Assembly (NCBI GenBank): GCA_021822495.1 | Contig: JAKAQO010000001.1 | Coordinates: 80,297 to 144,296, forward strand | DNA from: a bacterium | Lineage (GTDB): Bacteria; Elusimicrobiota; Elusimicrobia; UBA1565; UBA9628 | DNA: 64,000 nt | Reading direction: 5' to 3' | Shown here: in pieces, positions 42,695 to 63,124 of the stretch | How the letters are laid out: every line of letters begins with the position of its first letter | Numbering within the stretch: position 1 is the first letter of the stretch | Notes under the pieces: generated by a model | Databases searched by the model: none | Seen by the model: only the letters and a program-made list of their open reading frames with translations | Told to the model about the DNA's origin: nothing | Translations under genes and position numbers: made by a program

Positions 42695-43566
42695 TAGTTT
42701 AAATAAACTCCCAAGGACATTGCATGCCACACTTCAAGCGCGCGCACGGTCTCTAAAACATCGTGAACCCGAAGCATCGCTGCCTTTTGAAGCGAGGCCC
42801 AGCAGGCAATCGCGACAGAACCCGGCAAACGCTCTTCTGGTTTGATATCCGCACAGATTTTTCCAATAAATCCCTTTCTCGAAGCGCCAACCACCACCGG
42901 AGATATTTTTGAAAATTTATAGAGATGCTTTAATATCTCCAGATTGTGATCAAGTTTTTTTCCAAAACCGATGCCCGGGTCGACCAAAACCTGTTCGAGT
43001 CTTCCTCCGGCTTGAATAAAAAAGTTTTTGCGTTCTTCTAAAAAAGAATAAATTTCCCCTACTACGTCCGCATAAACCGGGTTTTCCTGCATGGTCTTCG
43101 GATTTTCTCCGCCGCGGTGCATGAGTATGACGGATTGAAAATGAACCGCTTCCTGAATCATCTTTTTATCAAAACGCAGGGCTGAAATATCGTTTAAAAT
43201 GGAAGCCCCAAGGGATCGCGCTTGATGGGCCACTTCCGCTTTTTGAGTGTCAATGGAAAGCGGGAGGGGGAAATCTTTGAGTAGTTCCAAAACCGGAAGA
43301 ACGCGGTCCAGTTCTTCTTGAAGAGAAATTGAGTCCGATCCCGGTCTGGTTGATTCTCCGCCTAAATCAATGACATCCGCGCCTTCATCCAAGAATTGAA
43401 AGGCCTTGTCCGCAGCGGCTTTGGGCGAAAAAGATCGGCTGTGGGAATAAAATGAATCCGGGGTCGCGTTGACAATCCCCATGACCAGCGGCCGCTTAAG
43501 ACTTTTGAATTTTTCCAAAACTCCCGGCGAAGAGTTTAAGTCTTGAGTTTCTTTCACGGCAGTCAA
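42694..43566 (-). CDS. folP: Dihydropteroate synthase
   Basis: NATPDSF, GGESTRPG, DPGIGFGK, SRK and RVHDV motifs. Confidence 0.96.
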   Translation of the reverse strand: MTAVKETQDLNSSPGVLEKFKSLKRPLVMGIVNATPDSFYSHSRSFSPKAAADKAFQFLDEGADVIDLGGESTRPGSDSISLQEELDRVLPVLELLKDFPLPLSIDTQKAEVAHQARSLGASILNDISALRFDKKMIQEAVHFQSVILMHRGGENPKTMQENPVYADVVGEIYSFLEERKNFFIQAGGRLEQVLVDPGIGFGKKLDHNLEILKHLYKFSKISPVVVGASRKGFIGKICADIKPEERLPGSVAIACWASLQKAAMLRVHDVLETVRALEVWHAMSLGVYLN

Positions 43567-44561
43567 AAGGCTAGAACTTCCTCGGCGGCCATGAGTAATC
43601 GGTCCACATCCGGAATGTAATAGCGTTCCAAGCGGAAAAGTGGCATCCGAATATCCCAGCCTCCCACTCTTTTAACCGGGGCCTTGAGCACAGTTAACGC
43701 ACGCTCGGAAATTTCCGCACTGATCTCAGCCGCCCAGGATCCGGAATTAGGAGCTTCATGGGCGATCAGCGCTCGACCGGTTTTAGAAACGCTTTTGAGA
43801 ATGGCGTCTAAATCAAGCGGAGTGAGAGTTCTTAAATCCAAAACTTCAGCCGAAGTTCCATTTTGAGACAAACGCTCGGCAGACTTAAGACAGGTCCCAA
43901 CCATCGCCCCCCAAGAAATCATCGTCAAATCCGAGCCTTCCCGGCGCACGCGCGCGCTTCCAATTTGAATCTCATAGGGCTCTTCCTGAACCGGCCCGCG
44001 AGCCGCCCGGTAAAGAGCTTTGGGTTCAAAGAAAATGACGGGATCCGGATCTCGAACGGCGGCAATCAAAAGCCCCTTGGCGTCTTCTGGAGTCGACGGG
44101 CAAACGACCTTGATTCCCGGGGTGTGGCAAAAATAAGCCTCTGGAGATTCCGAGTGATGCTCAGGGGCATGAATAAGCCCGCCGTGAGGCGAGCGAATAA
44201 CCAAAGGCAAGGAGTAGCGTCCGCGAGTCCGGCTTCGAATTCTCCCTAAGTGAGAAACGACCTGATCAAAAATAGAGGGCGTAAATCCGTCAAATTGAAT
44301 TTCACAAACCGGCCGATACCCGGCAATGGCCAGCCCCATCGCCGAACCGATGATGCCTAGTTCTGCCAAGGGAGTGTCAACCACTCTTTCACTTCCAAAA
44401 CGGTCAAACAAGCCTTCAGTCGCGCGAAAAACGCCGCCATTTTTGCCGACATCTTCGCCCAGAATAATCACGCGCTCATCTTTTTCCATCTCCTGGCGCA
44501 AGGCCTCGTTGATGGCCCCAACCAAATTGAGTTCTCGGGTTTTCACCACCGTCTTTGTCAT
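43563..44561 (-). CDS. pdhB: 2-oxoacid (pyruvate) dehydrogenase E1 beta subunit
   Basis: GEDVGKNGGVFRAT, DTPLAE and EHHSESPE motifs. Confidence 0.92.
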   Translation of the reverse strand: MTKTVVKTRELNLVGAINEALRQEMEKDERVIILGEDVGKNGGVFRATEGLFDRFGSERVVDTPLAELGIIGSAMGLAIAGYRPVCEIQFDGFTPSIFDQVVSHLGRIRSRTRGRYSLPLVIRSPHGGLIHAPEHHSESPEAYFCHTPGIKVVCPSTPEDAKGLLIAAVRDPDPVIFFEPKALYRAARGPVQEEPYEIQIGSARVRREGSDLTMISWGAMVGTCLKSAERLSQNGTSAEVLDLRTLTPLDLDAILKSVSKTGRALIAHEAPNSGSWAAEISAEISERALTVLKAPVKRVGGWDIRMPLFRLERYYIPDVDRLLMAAEEVLAF

Positions 44562-44594
44562 GGTCTCCTTCCGTACAGACTCTGGCCGTTCTCC

Positions 44595-44691
44595 AACGAA
44601 TCTGGAAACGGCACTTCCTCGCCTATGCTCGGTCGGAGCCGACCATTTCTGACCGAATATAAATGAGGGAATGCCGCTTCCAAATTCCGTT
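44595..44691. repeat. 97-bp imperfect inverted repeat / long hairpin
   Basis: Arms 44595-44638 and 44647-44691 match at 33 of 44 positions with one bulged base; all 11 differences are transitions. Confidence 0.8.
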
Positions 44692-44718
44692 TAAGATAGC
44701 GACCTCGCTTAAGCTCAG

Positions 44719-45711
44719 TCATGAAATAGAAATCCCCATCTTATTGACAATCTTGTTCGCCATATTCTTAAAATCCTCACGGGCGTCTTGCGCCGCCAGA
44801 GCGTGGGATCCAATAGCGCCATCGGCCGGCTTGAGTAAAAACATAGGCTTACGCGCCTCCTGAGCCATGGCCATGAGACTTCGATAATGCTTGAGAAGGC
44901 CAAAACAATGCGGATCCTCGGAAACCGTGTAGTCGCCCTCTATCTCCTCAAGCACGTATTTTCGATAGGCGCCAGGCATACGATGAATCCATTTTTCATA
45001 GGATTTAGCGGGACGATCCTGGCGGATTGAATGTTGCATGACAATATAGCCGATGGGACTCATCTCGCCTTGCGGCAATTGGAGCTGGGGATCGGGATTT
45101 TTTTTCAATCGCTCACCCCACTCTTTCCGCCATTTTCTCAGAGTCGGGCCTAAATTTCTCAACCCTTGGAGAGAAAAGAGATCGGGCGCCAGCGGCACGA
45201 CCACATGGCTTGATGAAATTAAGGCGGCTCGATTAATGGCGCCGAGATTAGGACCAATATCTACAAGCACGATTTTTGCCTTCTGCCTTTCAGCGGCTTC
45301 TTGGATGACCCGCCAGAATGCCGATATCACCCGAAACGCGCGTTCCTTGCTGTCCAGACATTCAGGCCAAACCTGGGAAAGGTCATCCTCAAAACCGCTC
45401 AACGCCATATCTCCGGGAACAAGGAAAAGCGTATCGCTAATTTTTTGAGTCTCGGGAGTTTTAATATCGCCAACCCCGCGCCTAAGAGGCTCAATCGCTC
45501 CAAAAATCGTCCGCGAACTCCCATTCTCCGGCCATAATTTTTCTAATTCTTCATCATCAAGGAAAGCGGCGGAGAGGTTCCCCTGGGGATCAAGATCGGC
45601 GGTTAAAACGCTCAACCCCATATCTGAAAGCATCCATGCGACATGATAGATGAGAGACGTCTTGCCGACGCCGCCCTTGTTATTAAAGAATGTCAATACG
45701 GGAACGCTCAT
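44719..45711 (-). CDS. ParA/Soj-superfamily ATPase (non-partitioning type)
   Basis: Deviant Walker A FFNNKGGVGKTS, DLDPQGNL and DIGPNLG. The ATG overlaps the upstream stop (ATGA 45711-45708). Confidence 0.9.
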   Translation of the reverse strand: MSVPVLTFFNNKGGVGKTSLIYHVAWMLSDMGLSVLTADLDPQGNLSAAFLDDEELEKLWPENGSSRTIFGAIEPLRRGVGDIKTPETQKISDTLFLVPGDMALSGFEDDLSQVWPECLDSKERAFRVISAFWRVIQEAAERQKAKIVLVDIGPNLGAINRAALISSSHVVVPLAPDLFSLQGLRNLGPTLRKWRKEWGERLKKNPDPQLQLPQGEMSPIGYIVMQHSIRQDRPAKSYEKWIHRMPGAYRKYVLEEIEGDYTVSEDPHCFGLLKHYRSLMAMAQEARKPMFLLKPADGAIGSHALAAQDAREDFKNMANKIVNKMGISIS

Positions 45712-46925
45712 GGCGCTCTCCAAACTGTCACGAGTATATAGTTATGTTCAACGTTAAAAACCGGCGCGGGATTTCCATTATCGGCAAGCGCTTTTCGGGC
45801 TATCTGAATGCCTACTCCAAATTTCTGAACGAATCCGAGATTACGCATGACCTCGGCTACGTTGGGATTGCGATAATCCGTAATCCCCGGCTTGCCGAAA
45901 TTTTCGAGAGTCACCTGACCGAACGGCCCTCCTGGATTTTGCATCTCGATACGGTCTGAAAACCACGTGACCCTAACCGGGGCATTGGAATTCGCGTAAT
46001 CTCTATGCATAACGGCATTCCGGACGAGTTGCTGAAGGGCGTCCAGTGGATAATCACGCCACTGTATTTCCGTTGAGGCCGATCGAACATCCGTCGCAAT
46101 TCGTATATTCGCGCGAAAAATTTCATCTATTTGGCGCATCAAGTCGGGAATAGGACCCTGAATCAGCTTTTGATCCGCGATTGGGTCCGCCAGGGTTGTT
46201 CCGTTTATTCTGAGAAATTGGATATAGGCTCCAGGCAGAAACGATTCGGGCCCTTTTCCGATGGCAATAATTCCCACAACCGTCGGCAGCGACTTATCTC
46301 CCAAGGTCAAAAACCGCAAAGAGGCCATCTGTTGCTCCAATGTCCTCCCATTTACCCGCAAAACCTCCGGGGCAATGGCCGAAGGCAGATAAACGCGGCG
46401 AAAAAAATCCTCATCCAAATCTTTTATGGAGGCGCTCGTGATTTGACGCAAATCATCGGGCAAATCGGCGGCCTTGCGCCTCTCGTTCAGTCGACGCTCT
46501 TCTTCCATTGAGGCAACAGCCCTTCGAGGTCCAACTCGTATCCAAACCTGACCTTTATAGCGAACCGGCGGAAAAAGAGACGGCCAGACGATAACAACAG
46601 CAATCTCGCAACCATTCAACACGCGCTTTTCAACGGACATTGTGGGCATCGAAAGGATATTCCCGTTTGAACGCATATCGGAAAGTTGAATAAGCAACTC
46701 TTCTGTCACTCGCAACCCGGCACAATTACCGTCATCCCGTACGCCGATAAAAATGACGCCGGGCAGATTATGCCCCGGCATATCGTTGGCAAACGCGCAA
46801 ATGGCCTTACACACATCGCCAGGGTTGGCAAGCGAAGCTTTTCTCTCAACACGATCTGACTCAATCTCTTTCAAGAGCGTTATGAGTTCGCTGTCATCCA
46901 TGGATTTCACCGCAGTCCCTGTCAT
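45708..46925 (-). CDS. Schlafen/AlbA_2 domain + HATPase_c_4-like protein
   Basis: N-terminal ESDRVERK, AFAND and IGVRDDG; C-terminal NAVMHRDY, RIEMQNPGG, RNP and GFVQKFGVGI. No terminal HTH. Confidence 0.85.
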   Translation of the reverse strand: MTGTAVKSMDDSELITLLKEIESDRVERKASLANPGDVCKAICAFANDMPGHNLPGVIFIGVRDDGNCAGLRVTEELLIQLSDMRSNGNILSMPTMSVEKRVLNGCEIAVVIVWPSLFPPVRYKGQVWIRVGPRRAVASMEEERRLNERRKAADLPDDLRQITSASIKDLDEDFFRRVYLPSAIAPEVLRVNGRTLEQQMASLRFLTLGDKSLPTVVGIIAIGKGPESFLPGAYIQFLRINGTTLADPIADQKLIQGPIPDLMRQIDEIFRANIRIATDVRSASTEIQWRDYPLDALQQLVRNAVMHRDYANSNAPVRVTWFSDRIEMQNPGGPFGQVTLENFGKPGITDYRNPNVAEVMRNLGFVQKFGVGIQIARKALADNGNPAPVFNVEHNYILVTVWRAP

Positions 46926-48112
46926 GGAAAGCGCCCCTCAAGAGGCGGGATCTCGACGATTTCCCCCAAACGCATTTTTCTCTCAAGCAAAGCTTCGAGT
47001 TCGGCTCTTTGTTCGATTAAAGCTCGTGGCGCGCTCGCATAATTGTTGGCGAACATATCCAAAGGGTTCGGCTCAGGGAAAGACTCATAGGCCTTAATCT
47101 CCGCATCCACCAGGGCCTCCGCGTTTTTGAGGAGTTCTTGATGCCGCGCTTCATCCATGAGTTTGAGCGTCTCCAAATATCGCCTAAGACGTAAAAGCGG
47201 ATCGCGTTTGGCCCATTTCTCCACGTCTGTTTTCTCTCGGTAGCGGGAAGCGTCATCCGCAGTTGTGTGATTGGCCATGCGATAAGTCTCAAGCTCAAGA
47301 AGAGTCGATCCCCGGCCTTCCCGCCCGCGAGAAATGGCCTGCTGCATAGCGGAAAAAACTGCCAAGGCGTCGTTTCCGTCTACCTGAAGGCCAAACACTC
47401 CATACCCATGGGCCTTTTGAGCGAAAGTCTCGGCTGCGCATTGCGTTCGCCTTGAAACCGAAATGGCCCATTGATTGTTTTCTATGAGGAATATCACGGG
47501 CAATTTCATTGTGCCTGCAAAAGTTAAAGCCTCGTGCAAATCGCCCTTGGAACTGGCGCCGTCCCCCAAATAAGCCAAGACGACCGCGCCATCATCGCTA
47601 ACGCCTTTCCCAAAGCGCGACAAGGACGCTCGGCCTTCGGCCTTGACCGCGCCTTTTTTTTCGAGTTTCGCGCCCCAGGCGAGCCCCGCAGCCAAGGTCA
47701 AATGCCCGCCGACTGTGATTGAAAACGTCATATCACGGTTTTCTTCCGGGAAAACGGTCCCACGGTCATCGCCCGCCCAGACTAAAAGCGAATGGCGAAA
47801 TTTCATTCCACGCCCGTAATACGCCCCGGTTCCGCGATAAGTGGGAATCATCCAATCCGAGGGTTTGAGGCAAAAAGCGGGAATAAGTTGGCTCGCCTCT
47901 TGTCCCAAAACCGAAGGATAGGTGCCTAAGCGGCCTTGACGCTGGAGCTTAATCGCGCGTTCATCGAATGCGCGGAGTTCAATCATTTTTTGGTAAATTT
48001 CAAGCAAGGTCTTGGAGTCAATGTGCGGATCAAGAGTGGAATCAACAGAGCCGTCTGGACTTAAAATCTCAAGACGCTGGGTTTCGTGGCGAACAACGGT
48101 TTCAAGAGGCAT
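46922..48112 (-). CDS. pdhA: 2-oxoacid (pyruvate) dehydrogenase E1 alpha subunit
   Basis: LQRQGRLGTY, TPP motif GDGASSKGD..NNQWAIS, and HTTADD. Confidence 0.93.
   Translation of the reverse strand: MPLETVVRHETQRLEILSPDGSVDSTLDPHIDSKTLLEIYQKMIELRAFDERAIKLQRQGRLGTYPSVLGQEASQLIPAFCLKPSDWMIPTYRGTGAYYGRGMKFRHSLLVWAGDDRGTVFPEENRDMTFSITVGGHLTLAAGLAWGAKLEKKGAVKAEGRASLSRFGKGVSDDGAVVLAYLGDGASSKGDLHEALTFAGTMKLPVIFLIENNQWAISVSRRTQCAAETFAQKAHGYGVFGLQVDGNDALAVFSAMQQAISRGREGRGSTLLELETYRMANHTTADDASRYREKTDVEKWAKRDPLLRLRRYLETLKLMDEARHQELLKNAEALVDAEIKAYESFPEPNPLDMFANNYASAPRALIEQRAELEALLERKMRLGEIVEIPPLEGRFP
47582..47653 (-). repeat. Structured repeat inserted in-frame in pdhA, bounded by 9-bp direct repeat
   Basis: GACCGCGCC at 47582-47590 and 47645-47653 (63 bp apart); 52/58 identity to 62652-62709 in inverted orientation. 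Confidence 0.85.
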
Positions 48113-49004
48113 GGACTTTTGAACCTTTCATGAATAATTCTCCAGCATGATAAGAACTGCGAACCAAGGGGCCGGAAGCAATTTCAGCAAACCCCATTTC
48201 TCTGGCGCGCTCAGCGTAAAAATCAAAACGCTCGGGACTTAAAAATTCCCGCACCGGAACATTCCGGCCGGATGAATCAGGCCTTAAATATTGTCCCAAA
48301 GTCACAATCGAAACTCCCGCCGCGCGCAAATCCCGCAAAGACTCTAAAACTTCCTCTTCCGTTTCGCCAATTCCCAAAAGAAGCGAAGATTTCGCCGGAG
48401 TATCGGGCAAAACTTTTCGAAAATGAGCGAGAACGGCCAAAGATTGATCATAGCCCGCTTTTGAATCTCGAACCGCGGGAGTCAGCCGCCGCACGGTTTC
48501 AAGATTGTGGGCCGCAACATCCGGCCGAACTTCTAAAACTTTCTCAATCAGATTTGTGTCCCCGCGAAAATCCTGCATCAAGACCTCGATTTTGGTCGTG
48601 GGACAATTTTGCCGAATCGCTTTGATGCAGGAAGCGATATGAGAGGCCCCCTGATCCGGCAAATCATCCCGGCATACCGTAGTTAAAACAATATAGTCCA
48701 ATTTCATCTCTTGAATAGTTTGGGCGAGTTTTTGCGGCTCAAGCGGGTCGGGCAGCGGAGGTTTTAAAGCGGAACTGACCGAACAAAAGCGGCAACCACG
48801 CGTGCATAATTCTCCCAAAACCATGAAGGTGGCTGTTCCCGCGCCCCAGCACTCGGCAAGATTAGGGCACCGGGCCTCTTCACAAACGGTATGAAGATTA
48901 CGGGAAGAAGAAATTTTTTTAATGCGCTCGTAATTTTCTCCCGTTGGAAGCTTGACGCGAAGCCAAGCAGGAAAACGCGAAAGAGAAGCCTCCGCCACCG
49001 GCAT
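48102..49004 (-). CDS. lipA: Lipoyl synthase
   Basis: CEEARCPNLAEC, CTRGCRFC and RSSY motifs. Confidence 0.97.
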   Translation of the reverse strand: MPVAEASLSRFPAWLRVKLPTGENYERIKKISSSRNLHTVCEEARCPNLAECWGAGTATFMVLGELCTRGCRFCSVSSALKPPLPDPLEPQKLAQTIQEMKLDYIVLTTVCRDDLPDQGASHIASCIKAIRQNCPTTKIEVLMQDFRGDTNLIEKVLEVRPDVAAHNLETVRRLTPAVRDSKAGYDQSLAVLAHFRKVLPDTPAKSSLLLGIGETEEEVLESLRDLRAAGVSIVTLGQYLRPDSSGRNVPVREFLSPERFDFYAERAREMGFAEIASGPLVRSSYHAGELFMKGSKVHAS

Positions 49005-61685: not shown

Positions 61686-63124
61686 TATTTCCAATCATAC
61701 TCCACGAGGTAGTTAATTTTTGACGAGGAATTTGCCTTGACGGGGATTTCAAAGGCAATGGTTTGGGCGTCTTTTTTTTTCCATTTCTCGCTTGCGGAAA
61801 CAATTTTCCATTTCGACCAGCGGTACAAATGTTCGACGACTTGAACCGTCACAGCGGATTTTTTGCGATTGGAAAGCGTAATCTCAAAACCTTCCCGCGT
61901 ATTTTTAGACCCGCGTTCAAAACTCATGCGCGTGCGGCGGCCGAGAACGTCAAAAGCCCTCCCCGCATGAATAACGAGCTTCTCATTTCTGGGAGTGGCG
62001 GGCAAAGAATCAGACCCTATCCATTCCAAGGCCCCATTTTTGTCTTTCTGGTACATCCGAATCTTTCCCGGGGGCAAGGGAAAACCCAGATGGGAATCTT
62101 TTGAATTTTTGAGTTTAAAAACCACTTTCACTTCTCCCTGGCTTTCCGCCCCATAATCAGGGTTGACCCGGGTGTAGACGCTAAAGTCTCCCCCAAAATC
62201 GGAGGCGTCATAGAGATATTCTTTTTTTACGGGAATGCCCGAGGCTTCTCCCATTGAAATGCGAACGCTCCCTTCGCCTAAATTGACGAGACCCGGCAAC
62301 GGATAAAGATGGTATTCAAACAAATCTTGGCTTTTCTCGATGATCTGTTGAGCAGCCGCCGCCATCGCCCGAAATAATGGATGGGGGTTTCCCACAGCCG
62401 CCAAGGATTGATGGGGGTTTCCGGCGACTAAAAGAACGCGAGCCTTTTTGAAATCTACGCCGGACTGATTGTTTAAATTAGCCCAAATCCGAAGCTCCAT
62501 TAAATTTGAGGATGAATTAATCATCGCGGCATAACTTGCCTTCCACGTCAGATCGCCGGTTAAATAGCTGATCTTAAACGGGTAAGCGCCCGGTTTTTCC
62601 GCTTTTATTTTCCAAGAGATGGACGGCTTAAAACTCGCTTTCGACAGCGAGGGCGCGCTCAAGGCCGAAGACCGAGCGTCCTTGCCGCGCTTTTGAAAAG
62701 GCGTCAGCGGCAAGGGAAGAACCCATGTCCCTTTTGGATTTAAATAGACCTGGTTTTGAACCTTGAGCGCCGTGAGATGCTCCTCCGCTTCCAACAAAAC
62801 GCCCTTAATCAACGCGGGAGTTTTCTCTTCCCTCAATTCAACTTCCTTGCCGACAAAATTTTTGAGAATCTGAGATTGGTCCGTCCAGCCGCCGAAAAAA
62901 TCTTGTTCCAGGACCGACGCCTTATCTTTCGGATTGGCCGGAGAGATTAAGACGCTGGCGGGTTCAAAGCCCCACGGCACGGGCATCGGCGCGGTTTTGG
63001 AGATTCCCGCTTTAAGCGGGAAAGTTATTTCTTCTTTAATCAACGCGCGCTGATCCTGGTAAATAGTGATTTCAACCGCCTGAGCGCGAACGCCTAAGAA
63101 AATAAACGGCAAGGCCCAGAGCAT
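61685..63124 (-). CDS. DUF4139 domain secreted protein
   Basis: ITIY..ALIKE, SYLT..LTWKASY, NQSG, LFEYHLY and PLPPGKIRMY motifs. Confidence 0.88.
   Translation of the reverse strand: MLWALPFIFLGVRAQAVEITIYQDQRALIKEEITFPLKAGISKTAPMPVPWGFEPASVLISPANPKDKASVLEQDFFGGWTDQSQILKNFVGKEVELREEKTPALIKGVLLEAEEHLTALKVQNQVYLNPKGTWVLPLPLTPFQKRGKDARSSALSAPSLSKASFKPSISWKIKAEKPGAYPFKISYLTGDLTWKASYAAMINSSSNLMELRIWANLNNQSGVDFKKARVLLVAGNPHQSLAAVGNPHPLFRAMAAAAQQIIEKSQDLFEYHLYPLPGLVNLGEGSVRISMGEASGIPVKKEYLYDASDFGGDFSVYTRVNPDYGAESQGEVKVVFKLKNSKDSHLGFPLPPGKIRMYQKDKNGALEWIGSDSLPATPRNEKLVIHAGRAFDVLGRRTRMSFERGSKNTREGFEITLSNRKKSAVTVQVVEHLYRWSKWKIVSASEKWKKKDAQTIAFEIPVKANSSSKINYLVEYDWK
62634..62715 (+). repeat. Second copy of structured repeat, in-frame and antisense within DUF4139 gene
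   Basis: 62652-62709 matches the pdhA insert at 52/58 positions; three adjacent hairpins. Confidence 0.85.

Follow-up and report, generated by a model that had tools for sequence, protein, structure and literature searches.

A Schlafen-GHKL and ParA-like gene pair inserted at the pdhA/pdhB junction of an Elusimicrobiota genome: a candidate conflict module

A 64,000-nucleotide stretch of bacterial DNA (herein the window; NCBI GenBank assembly GCA_021822495.1, contig JAKAQO010000001.1, positions 80,297–144,296 of the forward strand) from a genome of the Elusimicrobiota (GTDB lineage Bacteria; Elusimicrobiota; Elusimicrobia; UBA1565; UBA9628; labeled G000 here) carries two genes between pdhA and pdhB, the genes for pyruvate dehydrogenase (PDH) E1 alpha and beta. 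The first encodes a Schlafen-type nuclease domain joined to a histidine-kinase-like (GHKL) domain and the second a ParA-like ATPase, and the pair is probably a horizontally acquired, two-gene anti-phage or anti-plasmid conflict module of the ParA-effector kind, in a variant with a Schlafen-GHKL effector. A first-pass annotation, made from the sequence alone, had proposed a candidate defense or conflict system at this site. That reading gains from the fixed pairing of the two genes, a site of insertion that is not vertically inherited, the setting of other copies within Hma and bacteriophage exclusion (BREX) operons, the exchange of the Schlafen partner for SIR2 and an independent preprint (Li, Burroughs & Aravind, bioRxiv, 22 Oct 2026), and is therefore well supported by comparative evidence and by agreement with recent work, although it has no counterpart among the systems catalogued in PADLOC. 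The kind of system has already been described in the preprint and only its location here is unusual: a cassette of two open reading frames (ORFs) lies in the translationally coupled junction of pdhA and pdhB, where the start of pdhB is duplicated and a resident repeat appears to restore the expression signals of that gene.

A Fixed Gene Pair across Phyla

Close homologues of the ParA-like protein (52–65% identity) were compared at 83 loci, three from genome contigs and the others the best 80 of at least 584 confirmed metagenome stretches. A Schlafen homologue lies directly upstream, ending just before the ParA start, at 78 of these loci (57 of the 59 that have at least 1,250 bp of upstream flank), so the two genes do co-occur, whereas separate occurrence would have told against the first-pass annotation. 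The extrapolated Schlafen stop and ParA start overlap by 4 nucleotides at 45 of the 78 loci and lie within 15 nucleotides of each other at all but two. The Schlafen-GHKL and ParA genes are, then, a fixed and translationally coupled pair across phyla. The exceptions are two loci with less than 115 bp of upstream flank (L086 and L111) and three in which ParA occurs without a Schlafen gene (L060, L062, and L075).

The best 120 database matches to the ParA-like protein are full length at 62–72% identity (72% for the top match), and the few named sources among them are Pirellulales, Magnetococcales (or Magnetococcus), Thermoguttaceae, and Phycisphaerae. A tblastn search of a plasmid collection with the same protein returned 14 records, all at 36% identity or less, and no close relative; in the two plasmid records that were inspected ParA is solo, and an Abi gene lies close by in one and a type I restriction gene in the other.

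Several individual loci deserve description. The solo ParA genes of L060 and L062 lie beside the C-terminus (NOV_C) of an HmaA-type helicase, with a DUF1156 methylase on the other side in L062, and that of L075 follows a ResIII/MTES_1575 helicase; the L075 protein is nearly identical to the Schlafen-paired ParA of L057, which suggests recent loss or exchange of its partner. In L048 the pair lies directly downstream of gyrB; its Schlafen gene has an in-frame stop near codon 10, and its ParA is intact.

Defense Context and Exchange of the Effector

The neighborhood of the pair was scanned over up to four genes upstream and three genes downstream of ParA (188 proteins of at least 140 amino acids). 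At eight loci (L036, L054, L057, L063, L067, L068, L104, and L107) the pair stands beside or between genes for an SNF2-NOV_C/DUF3883 helicase and a DUF1156 methylase or DUF499 ATPase, and PADLOC (PADLOC-DB 2.0.0, whose library dates from 2023) calls HmaA, HmaB, and HmaC in L104, L068, and L054. A type 1 BREX operon at L114 has the pair set between its PglX and PglZ. Genes upstream of the pair at L077 encode an AriA/OLD-like ATPase and a type III methylase, and nearby genes encode an Mrr-type nuclease at L030 and transposases at L092, L106, and L108. The gene upstream is co-directional with the pair in 35 of 47 cases. The first-pass annotation had set the pair in a housekeeping operon rather than a defense island, which describes the window copy well but not the family, given that the pair is also found within Hma and BREX operons.

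A single NTPase family whose nuclease and NADase partners are interchangeable is the usual signature of defense systems, and the ParA family at hand changes its partner. Loci on viral contigs hold distant, full-length members of the family (27–32% identity), with a same-strand ORF of 282–312 amino acids after ParA in 17 of 18 cases (L129–L146), and all four of the scanned ORFs downstream of distant ParA relatives encode SIR2_2 proteins, with PADLOC matches to ThsA, LmuA, and Dsr1. Operon context and partner exchange together point to a conflict system. A third ParA group on viral contigs (L115–L128; 34–37% identity) is solo, in phage-like settings, and lacks Schlafen and SIR2 partners alike; the L115 contig has a gene for a small terminase subunit two ORFs downstream of ParA. 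This group may correspond to the "Solo-Transposon-Prophage" clades of the preprint.

Within PADLOC itself, the Schlafen protein of the window matches only prokaryotic Argonaute (pAgo) and Aga_SIR2-PNTD models, with PDLC02394 (pAgo) covering residues 36–400, and the ParA-like protein matches only a 41-residue P-loop stretch of PDC-M28B.

Architecture of the Schlafen-GHKL Protein

The Schlafen-GHKL gene (45708–46925, minus strand, as are all genes and features of the locus described here) is a 405-amino-acid ORF whose assignment rests on Pfam and on orthologue alignments. Pfam recovers all three domains named in the first-pass annotation (AlbA_2, HATPase_c_4, and AAA_31): SLFN_AlbA_2 over residues 22–134 of this protein (E 2.9e-14; 46524–46862), HATPase_c_4 over residues 315–400 (E 1.2e-17), and AAA_31 in the ParA-like protein. 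The absence of a C-terminal helix-turn-helix (HTH) is likewise real, the protein stopping five residues past its last domain, and the two motifs that had been noted, ESDRVERK (residues 22–29; 46839–46862) and FIGVRDDG, are both present. For comparison, 26 Schlafen orthologues were taken as the full-length matches among the 57 loci with full upstream flank, L048 being excluded for its stop codon. The Ex4(E/D)xK active-site motif of prokaryotic Schlafen (pSlfn) nucleases is conserved among them, with both glutamates in 26 of 26 and the lysine in 24.

A structure model of the protein (mean predicted local distance difference test score 88.6) has its best fold match in 3lmm_A (Z 22.5, residues 1–397; 352 residues aligned, root mean square deviation 13.7). 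Residues 1–140 of the model have a fold like that of the C-lobe of the mammalian SLFN nuclease domain, with matches of middling Z value to AlbA_2 (2kyy, Z 10.0), SAMD9 (7ksp, Z 9.7), SLFN11 (7fex, Z 8.6), SLFN12 (7lrd, Z 7.6), and 7zel (Z 7.5). Residues 223–397 match the catalytic and ATP-binding (CA) domains of histidine kinases, SpoIIAB and PDK2 at Z of about 8–9, and these matches together with HATPase_c_4 place the GHKL domain at 45711–46235.

The N-box asparagine of the GHKL domain is invariant (26 of 26 orthologues), and the residue four positions before it is glutamine in the window protein and in 24 of the 26, with glutamate only in L114 and in the copy of the same-genus genome G003. 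Since glutamine here takes the place of the catalytic glutamate of GHKL proteins, the Schlafen-GHKL protein probably binds ATP and hydrolyzes little of it.

The ParA-like Protein

The ParA-like gene (44719–45711) encodes 330 amino acids that match Pfam AAA_31 (E 1.7e-24) and CbiA, with a deviant Walker A motif NNKGGVGKTS at about 45658–45678. In an alignment of 16 sequences (A1; 69% mean column identity) the KGGVGKT, DLD, and Walker B aspartate residues are invariant, K12, V15, and K17 included, and the protein carries a conserved C-terminal extension of about 130 residues. Its profile matches the Protein Data Bank entry 3pg5_A over the full length, extension included (E 4.2e-37), and Soj/ParA structures over the core. 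Partition-protein models of NCBIfam score far under their cut-offs (RepA 61.5 against 348; ParA_partition 53 against 180). A complex prediction for the two proteins, run from alignments A3 and A1 and with no controls, gave scores of 0.01 and 0.00, which count neither for nor against an interaction.

Insertion into the pdhA/pdhB Junction

The ORF list gives the minus-strand order lipA, pdhA, the 405-amino-acid Schlafen-type ORF, the 330-amino-acid ParA-like ORF, a 157-bp spacer, pdhB, and folP, and together with Pfam it confirms that the Schlafen-type and ParA-like genes separate pdhA from pdhB. A search for pdhA covered 21 genomes (G000 and 20 relatives) and found matches in 18 relatives, for 15 of which the loci were compared (G007, G009, and G011 being excluded). 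At all 15 loci pdhB follows pdhA directly and lipA lies upstream, and in the five same-genus genomes folP lies downstream of pdhB. Among the loci examined, the pair is an insertion found at the pdhA/pdhB junction in this genome only. A contig from metagenome run X1 joins position 44550 to 46915 and omits exactly 2,364 bp; it comes from a relative, since identity over its pdhA part is about 83%. Contigs from runs X1 and X4 at 100% identity contain the intact insert, though the assembly may derive from these very runs. The GC content of the insert (0.49–0.51) is the same as that of its flanks.

Among 40 relatives of this genome only G003, of the same genus, has the pair, on another contig and with the same ATGA overlap (ParA 59% and Schlafen 45% identical to those of the window); its own pdhA and pdhB are contiguous (locus L018). 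Vertical conservation at this site, which would have told against the first-pass reading, is thus absent, the 15 relatives' loci having no insert and the same-genus copy lying elsewhere. We considered a recent common origin of the window and G003 copies and found it unsupported, in view of these identities and their placement as nonsisters in a quick ParA tree of weak support (83–88). Another relative, G019, has a Schlafen protein of 54% identity without ParA, beside which a candidate ORF resembles a DUF3883/NOV_C-type domain at its C-terminus by eye. The window's own genome holds a second, unrelated Schlafen-GHKL paralogue (G000:C14:111650–112717; 31% identity, no ParA match adjoining) in a 505-amino-acid open frame, with room for an extra C-terminal domain.

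A direct repeat of about 25 nucleotides, located by blastn of the relatives' pdhA/pdhB junctions, brackets the insert at 46927–46903 and 44563–44539, with about five differences between the copies by eye. The right copy is the first 23 or so nucleotides of pdhB (44539–44561), and the left (46903–46927) is a copy of the pdhB 5' end (CC, ATG, and about 20 nucleotides) that supplies codons 1–8 of the 405-amino-acid ORF. Homology to the relatives' junctions extends about 20 nucleotides beyond the pdhA stop into the Schlafen ORF and resumes at CCATGAC before pdhB; because it reaches these codons, the first eight residues (MTGTAVKS) are a copied pdhB start. The X1 joint at 44550 and 46915 falls within the left repeat copy. 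Schlafen orthologues start at M9 (MDDSEL...), with alignments beginning at query residues 8–10, which makes M9 (ATG at 46901) the probable native start, of a protein of 397 amino acids. From the orthologue start and the copied pdhB start it follows that the foreign DNA runs from 46901 to the ParA stop at 44719: 2,183 bp, two ORFs, and no donor flank.

The first-pass annotation described the genes as chained by ATGA overlaps, and both are present in the sequence (ccATGAcag at 46925–46922 and ccATGAgcg at 45711–45708). The one that ties the cassette to pdhA was inherited from the native junction of pdhA and pdhB and now starts a chimeric ORF. The claim that the cassette has no promoter space of its own also stands, its first ORF overlapping the pdhA stop. 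In the absence of upstream space and with a native stop/start overlap in front, the cassette is probably cotranscribed and cotranslated with pdhA; among the RNA runs listed for this sequence none contained 44300–47200. ParA is not chained to pdhB, from which the spacer (44562–44718) separates it. At 17 listed loci elsewhere the pair begins 7–54 nucleotides after the upstream gene with no overlap, and these spacers rule out that the cassette generally targets ATGA junctions.

A Resident Repeat Upstream of pdhB

The interval between ParA and pdhB (44562–44722), which runs from the stop codon of the one to the ATG of the other, is a genus-specific, intergenic fold-back repeat resembling repetitive extragenic palindromes or miniature inverted-repeat transposable elements. 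It is about 160 nucleotides long, begins with ATGAC and terminates ahead of the pdhB ATG in GGAAGGAGACC, which resembles a ribosome-binding site (RBS); in every aligned copy the ATG of the terminal ...GGAAACC-ATG is the start codon of a gene, which varies between copies and between genomes. The window's genome has three full copies, the other two (G000:C5:31555–31715 and G000:C4:442398–442559) at 92% and 90% identity (93% and 89% in a second search), and several short forms of about 100 nucleotides that lack 51 (C15:188756, C11:32661, and C4:602620). All six genomes of the genus contain the repeat, with 7–28 matches each. By eye, candidate ORFs just upstream of the C5 copy resemble Phd/YefM- and RelE/ParE-type toxin–antitoxin genes.

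The repeat is predicted to fold into a long RNA hairpin (−68.2 kcal/mol, z −4.9), and a search of Rfam with 44450–44800 gave only two sub-threshold matches to miRNA families, which we ascribe to chance. A consensus scan places a sigma-70-like site, TTGGAA-16-TATATT, at 44656–44683 (9 of 12 positions matching); the scan found 2 sites in the region against 4.7 expected, so it is not significant alone. Both hexamers occupy columns that are invariant over six aligned copies of the repeat. The element resembles a mobile 5' leader that carries a promoter-like site and an RBS. Once the insertion had cut the coupling of pdhB to pdhA, it may have provided pdhB with a new RBS and possibly with a promoter.

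Relation to Described Systems

In a computational survey of ParA in immunity, Li, Burroughs & Aravind (bioRxiv, 22 Oct 2026) define ParA-effector systems and propose that ParA intercepts or sequesters invader DNA and that the effector is released when this fails. Like the window locus, these are two-gene units of a ParA-clade NTPase and a variable enzymatic effector, and their list of effectors includes both Schlafen-HisKinase and Sirtuin, the two partners found independently here. The mark of their ConB1 group, a conserved valine within Walker A, is V15 of the window protein, invariant in 16 of 16 sequences, and the ParA genes are coupled in operons to effectors that vary (Schlafen at 78 of 83 loci, SIR2_2 at four of four); our assignment relies on this valine and on effector coupling. 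The passages of the preprint drawn on here contain no mention of DUF499 and one of BREX, and we noticed in them no mention of the Gln-for-Glu change or of insertion into a housekeeping junction.

The unit of SLFN and GHKL domains has been named "Schlatpase" by Kuzmenko et al. (bioRxiv 10.64898/2026.05.29.728809), who report ATP-driven tetramerization and tRNA cleavage by the SLFN-pAgo RzAgo. In RzAgo the gamma-phosphate and Mg are coordinated by E314 and N318, and the E314A variant still binds ATP but no longer hydrolyzes it. Most Schlatpases are described there as small, with no other domain or a short HTH, and the sections drawn on report no conserved partner for SLFN-pAgos. The window protein has both domains in one chain (SLFN_AlbA_2 and the PF13749 GHKL domain) and keeps the asparagine equivalent to N318; unlike RzAgo it has neither an Argonaute core nor an HTH, and of the Mg/ATP-coordinating pair the E314 equivalent is glutamine, an equivalence that is drawn from the E-x3-N spacing and not from structural superposition. 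The role of sensor would, in the window, pass to the separate ParA-like protein.

Phage defense by pSlfn proteins through tRNA cleavage has been demonstrated in Escherichia coli (Perez Taboada et al. Nat Microbiol 2026; PMC13056530), where Slfn-HisKinase is the commonest class (34.0%). The window protein shares with them the Ex4(E/D)xK nuclease and a fused regulatory domain, whereas each validated system consists of one gene whose product has an Ig-like or DUF262 sensor, and the parts of the article drawn on do not mention a ParA partner. Schlafen-HisKinase proteins with a winged HTH (wHTH) have also been described as "backup effectors" embedded in BREX and DUF499-centered (Hma) systems (NAR 2026, PMC12839542), a setting much like that of the Schlafen-GHKL gene in L104, L068, L054, and L114; those proteins have a wHTH and stand alone, with ParA unmentioned in the portions drawn on, whereas the window protein has no HTH and is followed by a ParA-like gene.

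With classical ParABS and Soj–Spo0J systems the locus has in common a deviant Walker A ATPase of the ParA/MinD family. It differs from them in that no ParB or other centromere-binding partner adjoins within 38.7–52.1 kb, in its extra conserved C-terminal region and in its fixed nuclease partner.

Both proteins have structural counterparts from outside the defense literature. The entry 3lmm (DIP2311 of Corynebacterium diphtheriae, from structural genomics) covers the whole Schlafen-GHKL model and is longer, with 583 residues and an extra C-terminal part, and 3pg5, deposited as an "uncharacterized protein," matches the ParA-like protein including its C-terminal extension. Our literature search found no published function for either. 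We take 3pg5 to be from the same organism as 3lmm, presumably with a nearby locus tag.

A Proposed Mechanism and Its Alternatives

We hypothesize that the Schlafen domain is a tRNA-cutting effector and that, on binding ATP, the GHKL domain would drive oligomerization and so activate the nuclease, as in SLFN-pAgo. The ParA-like ATPase, as an ATP-dependent dimer with a DNA-binding surface, would sense or sequester invading DNA and would hold or release the effector, so confining the shutdown of translation to infected cells; the glutamine in the GHKL domain would leave ParA as the only hydrolytic switch. Downstream, pdhB would have been re-equipped by the resident repeat with its promoter-like site and RBS. 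A more specific proposal, which we regard as possible but doubtful, is that ParA-linked Schlatpases are a distinct class in which GHKL cannot reset and ParA replaces both the HTH (in DNA sensing) and hydrolysis (as timer), a two-ATPase relay arming a tRNase, and that the window holds a promoterless cassette translationally chained into an essential operon, with a repeat re-supplying promoter and RBS downstream. Were this so, defense expression and central metabolism would be linked. For the ParA-linked clade, the Gln-for-Glu change in GHKL offers a testable lead.

A number of observations weigh against a defense role. Most of the 78 paired loci lie among housekeeping genes and outside recognizable defense islands, with neighbors as ordinary as gyrB, cusA, relA/spoT, and a gene of the RNase E/G family. 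A model for the Schlafen–ParA pair is absent from PADLOC 2.0.0, and no single catalogued system is matched by both proteins. Four copies look decayed, by an in-frame stop (L048), a frameshift (L031), an internal deletion (L056), and the lack of a Schlafen domain (L090). The glutamine could reflect altered or lost ATPase function instead of a relay. Slfn-HisKinase constructs were among seven tested in E. coli, and the two that protected are DUF262 and Ig-like fusions (PMC13056530). Our search of the literature found no experiment on any ParA–Schlafen pair, the preprint of Li et al. being computational.

Some of these observations would suit a selfish addiction module resembling a toxin–antitoxin system, in which a Schlafen RNase toxin restrained by ParA makes the pair hard to lose and any anti-phage effect is secondary. 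The tight coupling of two genes by overlapping stop and start codons, the many solitary copies among housekeeping genes without other defense genes, the residence of the window copy in an essential operon around which 38.7–52.1 kb contains no mobility gene, and the two same-genus copies at different loci are all compatible with it. However, both proteins are large and, with ParA at 62–72% identity among its best 120 matches, highly conserved, unlike fast-evolving antitoxins; the pair is found inside Hma and BREX operons; the family also pairs with SIR2, as in sensor–effector defense systems; and its loss is tolerated, since decayed copies exist. We therefore consider an addiction module unlikely. 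The broken copies, the confinement of the insert to this genome among those examined and the fusion of its N-terminus to eight foreign codons might instead mark the window copy as a neutral or decaying passenger, acquired by chance, inactive, and tolerated since pdhB regained a promoter and RBS, which is very unlikely considering that both ORFs are intact and keep all invariant motif residues of the 26- and 16-sequence alignments; the 100%-identity X1 and X4 contigs carry the intact sequence too, though these are possibly the assembly's source runs.

The position between pdhA and pdhB also raises the idea that the GHKL protein was recruited as a regulator of PDH, resembling the kinases of PDH and branched-chain alpha-ketoacid dehydrogenase (BCKD). 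The fold matches to human PDK2 (6lil, Z 8.2) and BCKD kinase (3tz0, Z 7.7) fit this idea, as does a Transketolase_N protein encoded downstream of the pair in L039, but dozens of ordinary histidine-kinase CA domains match just as well as these kinases, the L039 protein is the only E1-like one among the 188 neighbors scanned, all 15 relatives manage without the insert, and the N-terminal domain is, from its intact active-site motif, a putative nuclease. Such a regulator is extremely improbable. The reading as an acquired conflict module is the one that we retain.

The ParA–Schlafen pair is widespread, as the metagenome count above attests, and the window copy is compact (2.18 kb, two ORFs, intact motifs), which makes it a convenient construct for studying control of a Schlafen tRNase by a ParA switch. 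In mammalian SLFN11 the same control problem is handled by an unrelated helicase domain. The locus further illustrates that an essential operon can take up a foreign cassette at a translationally coupled junction and stay unbroken, with the downstream start duplicated and a resident repeat giving new expression signals.

Flanking Genes and a Translated Repeat in pdhA

The PDH genes are assigned by Pfam and NCBIfam: pdhA (46922–48112; E1_dh, E 4.4e-72; PDH_E1_alph_x), whose stop overlaps the ATG of the next ORF, and pdhB (43563–44561; Transket_pyr and Transketolase_C). In the ORF list lipA occupies 48102–49004. The eight proteins flanking the PDH genes within 38.7–52.1 kb are of GlmS, PdxJ, GlmM, FolP, LipA, TrxB, FolB, and GroEL types, and ParB, integrases, and transposases are all absent from this interval, in agreement with the first-pass annotation, which had reported no parB or transposase nearby.

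Within pdhA lies a 63-bp, in-frame insertion (21 amino acids; 47583–47645) that the relatives do not have, bounded by a 9-nucleotide direct repeat, GGCGCGGTC. The insertion is one member of a small repeat family, of which the same genome has at least 10 more copies (81–93% identity), one of them at about 62655–62709 of the window, and is a repeat translated as protein within an essential enzyme.

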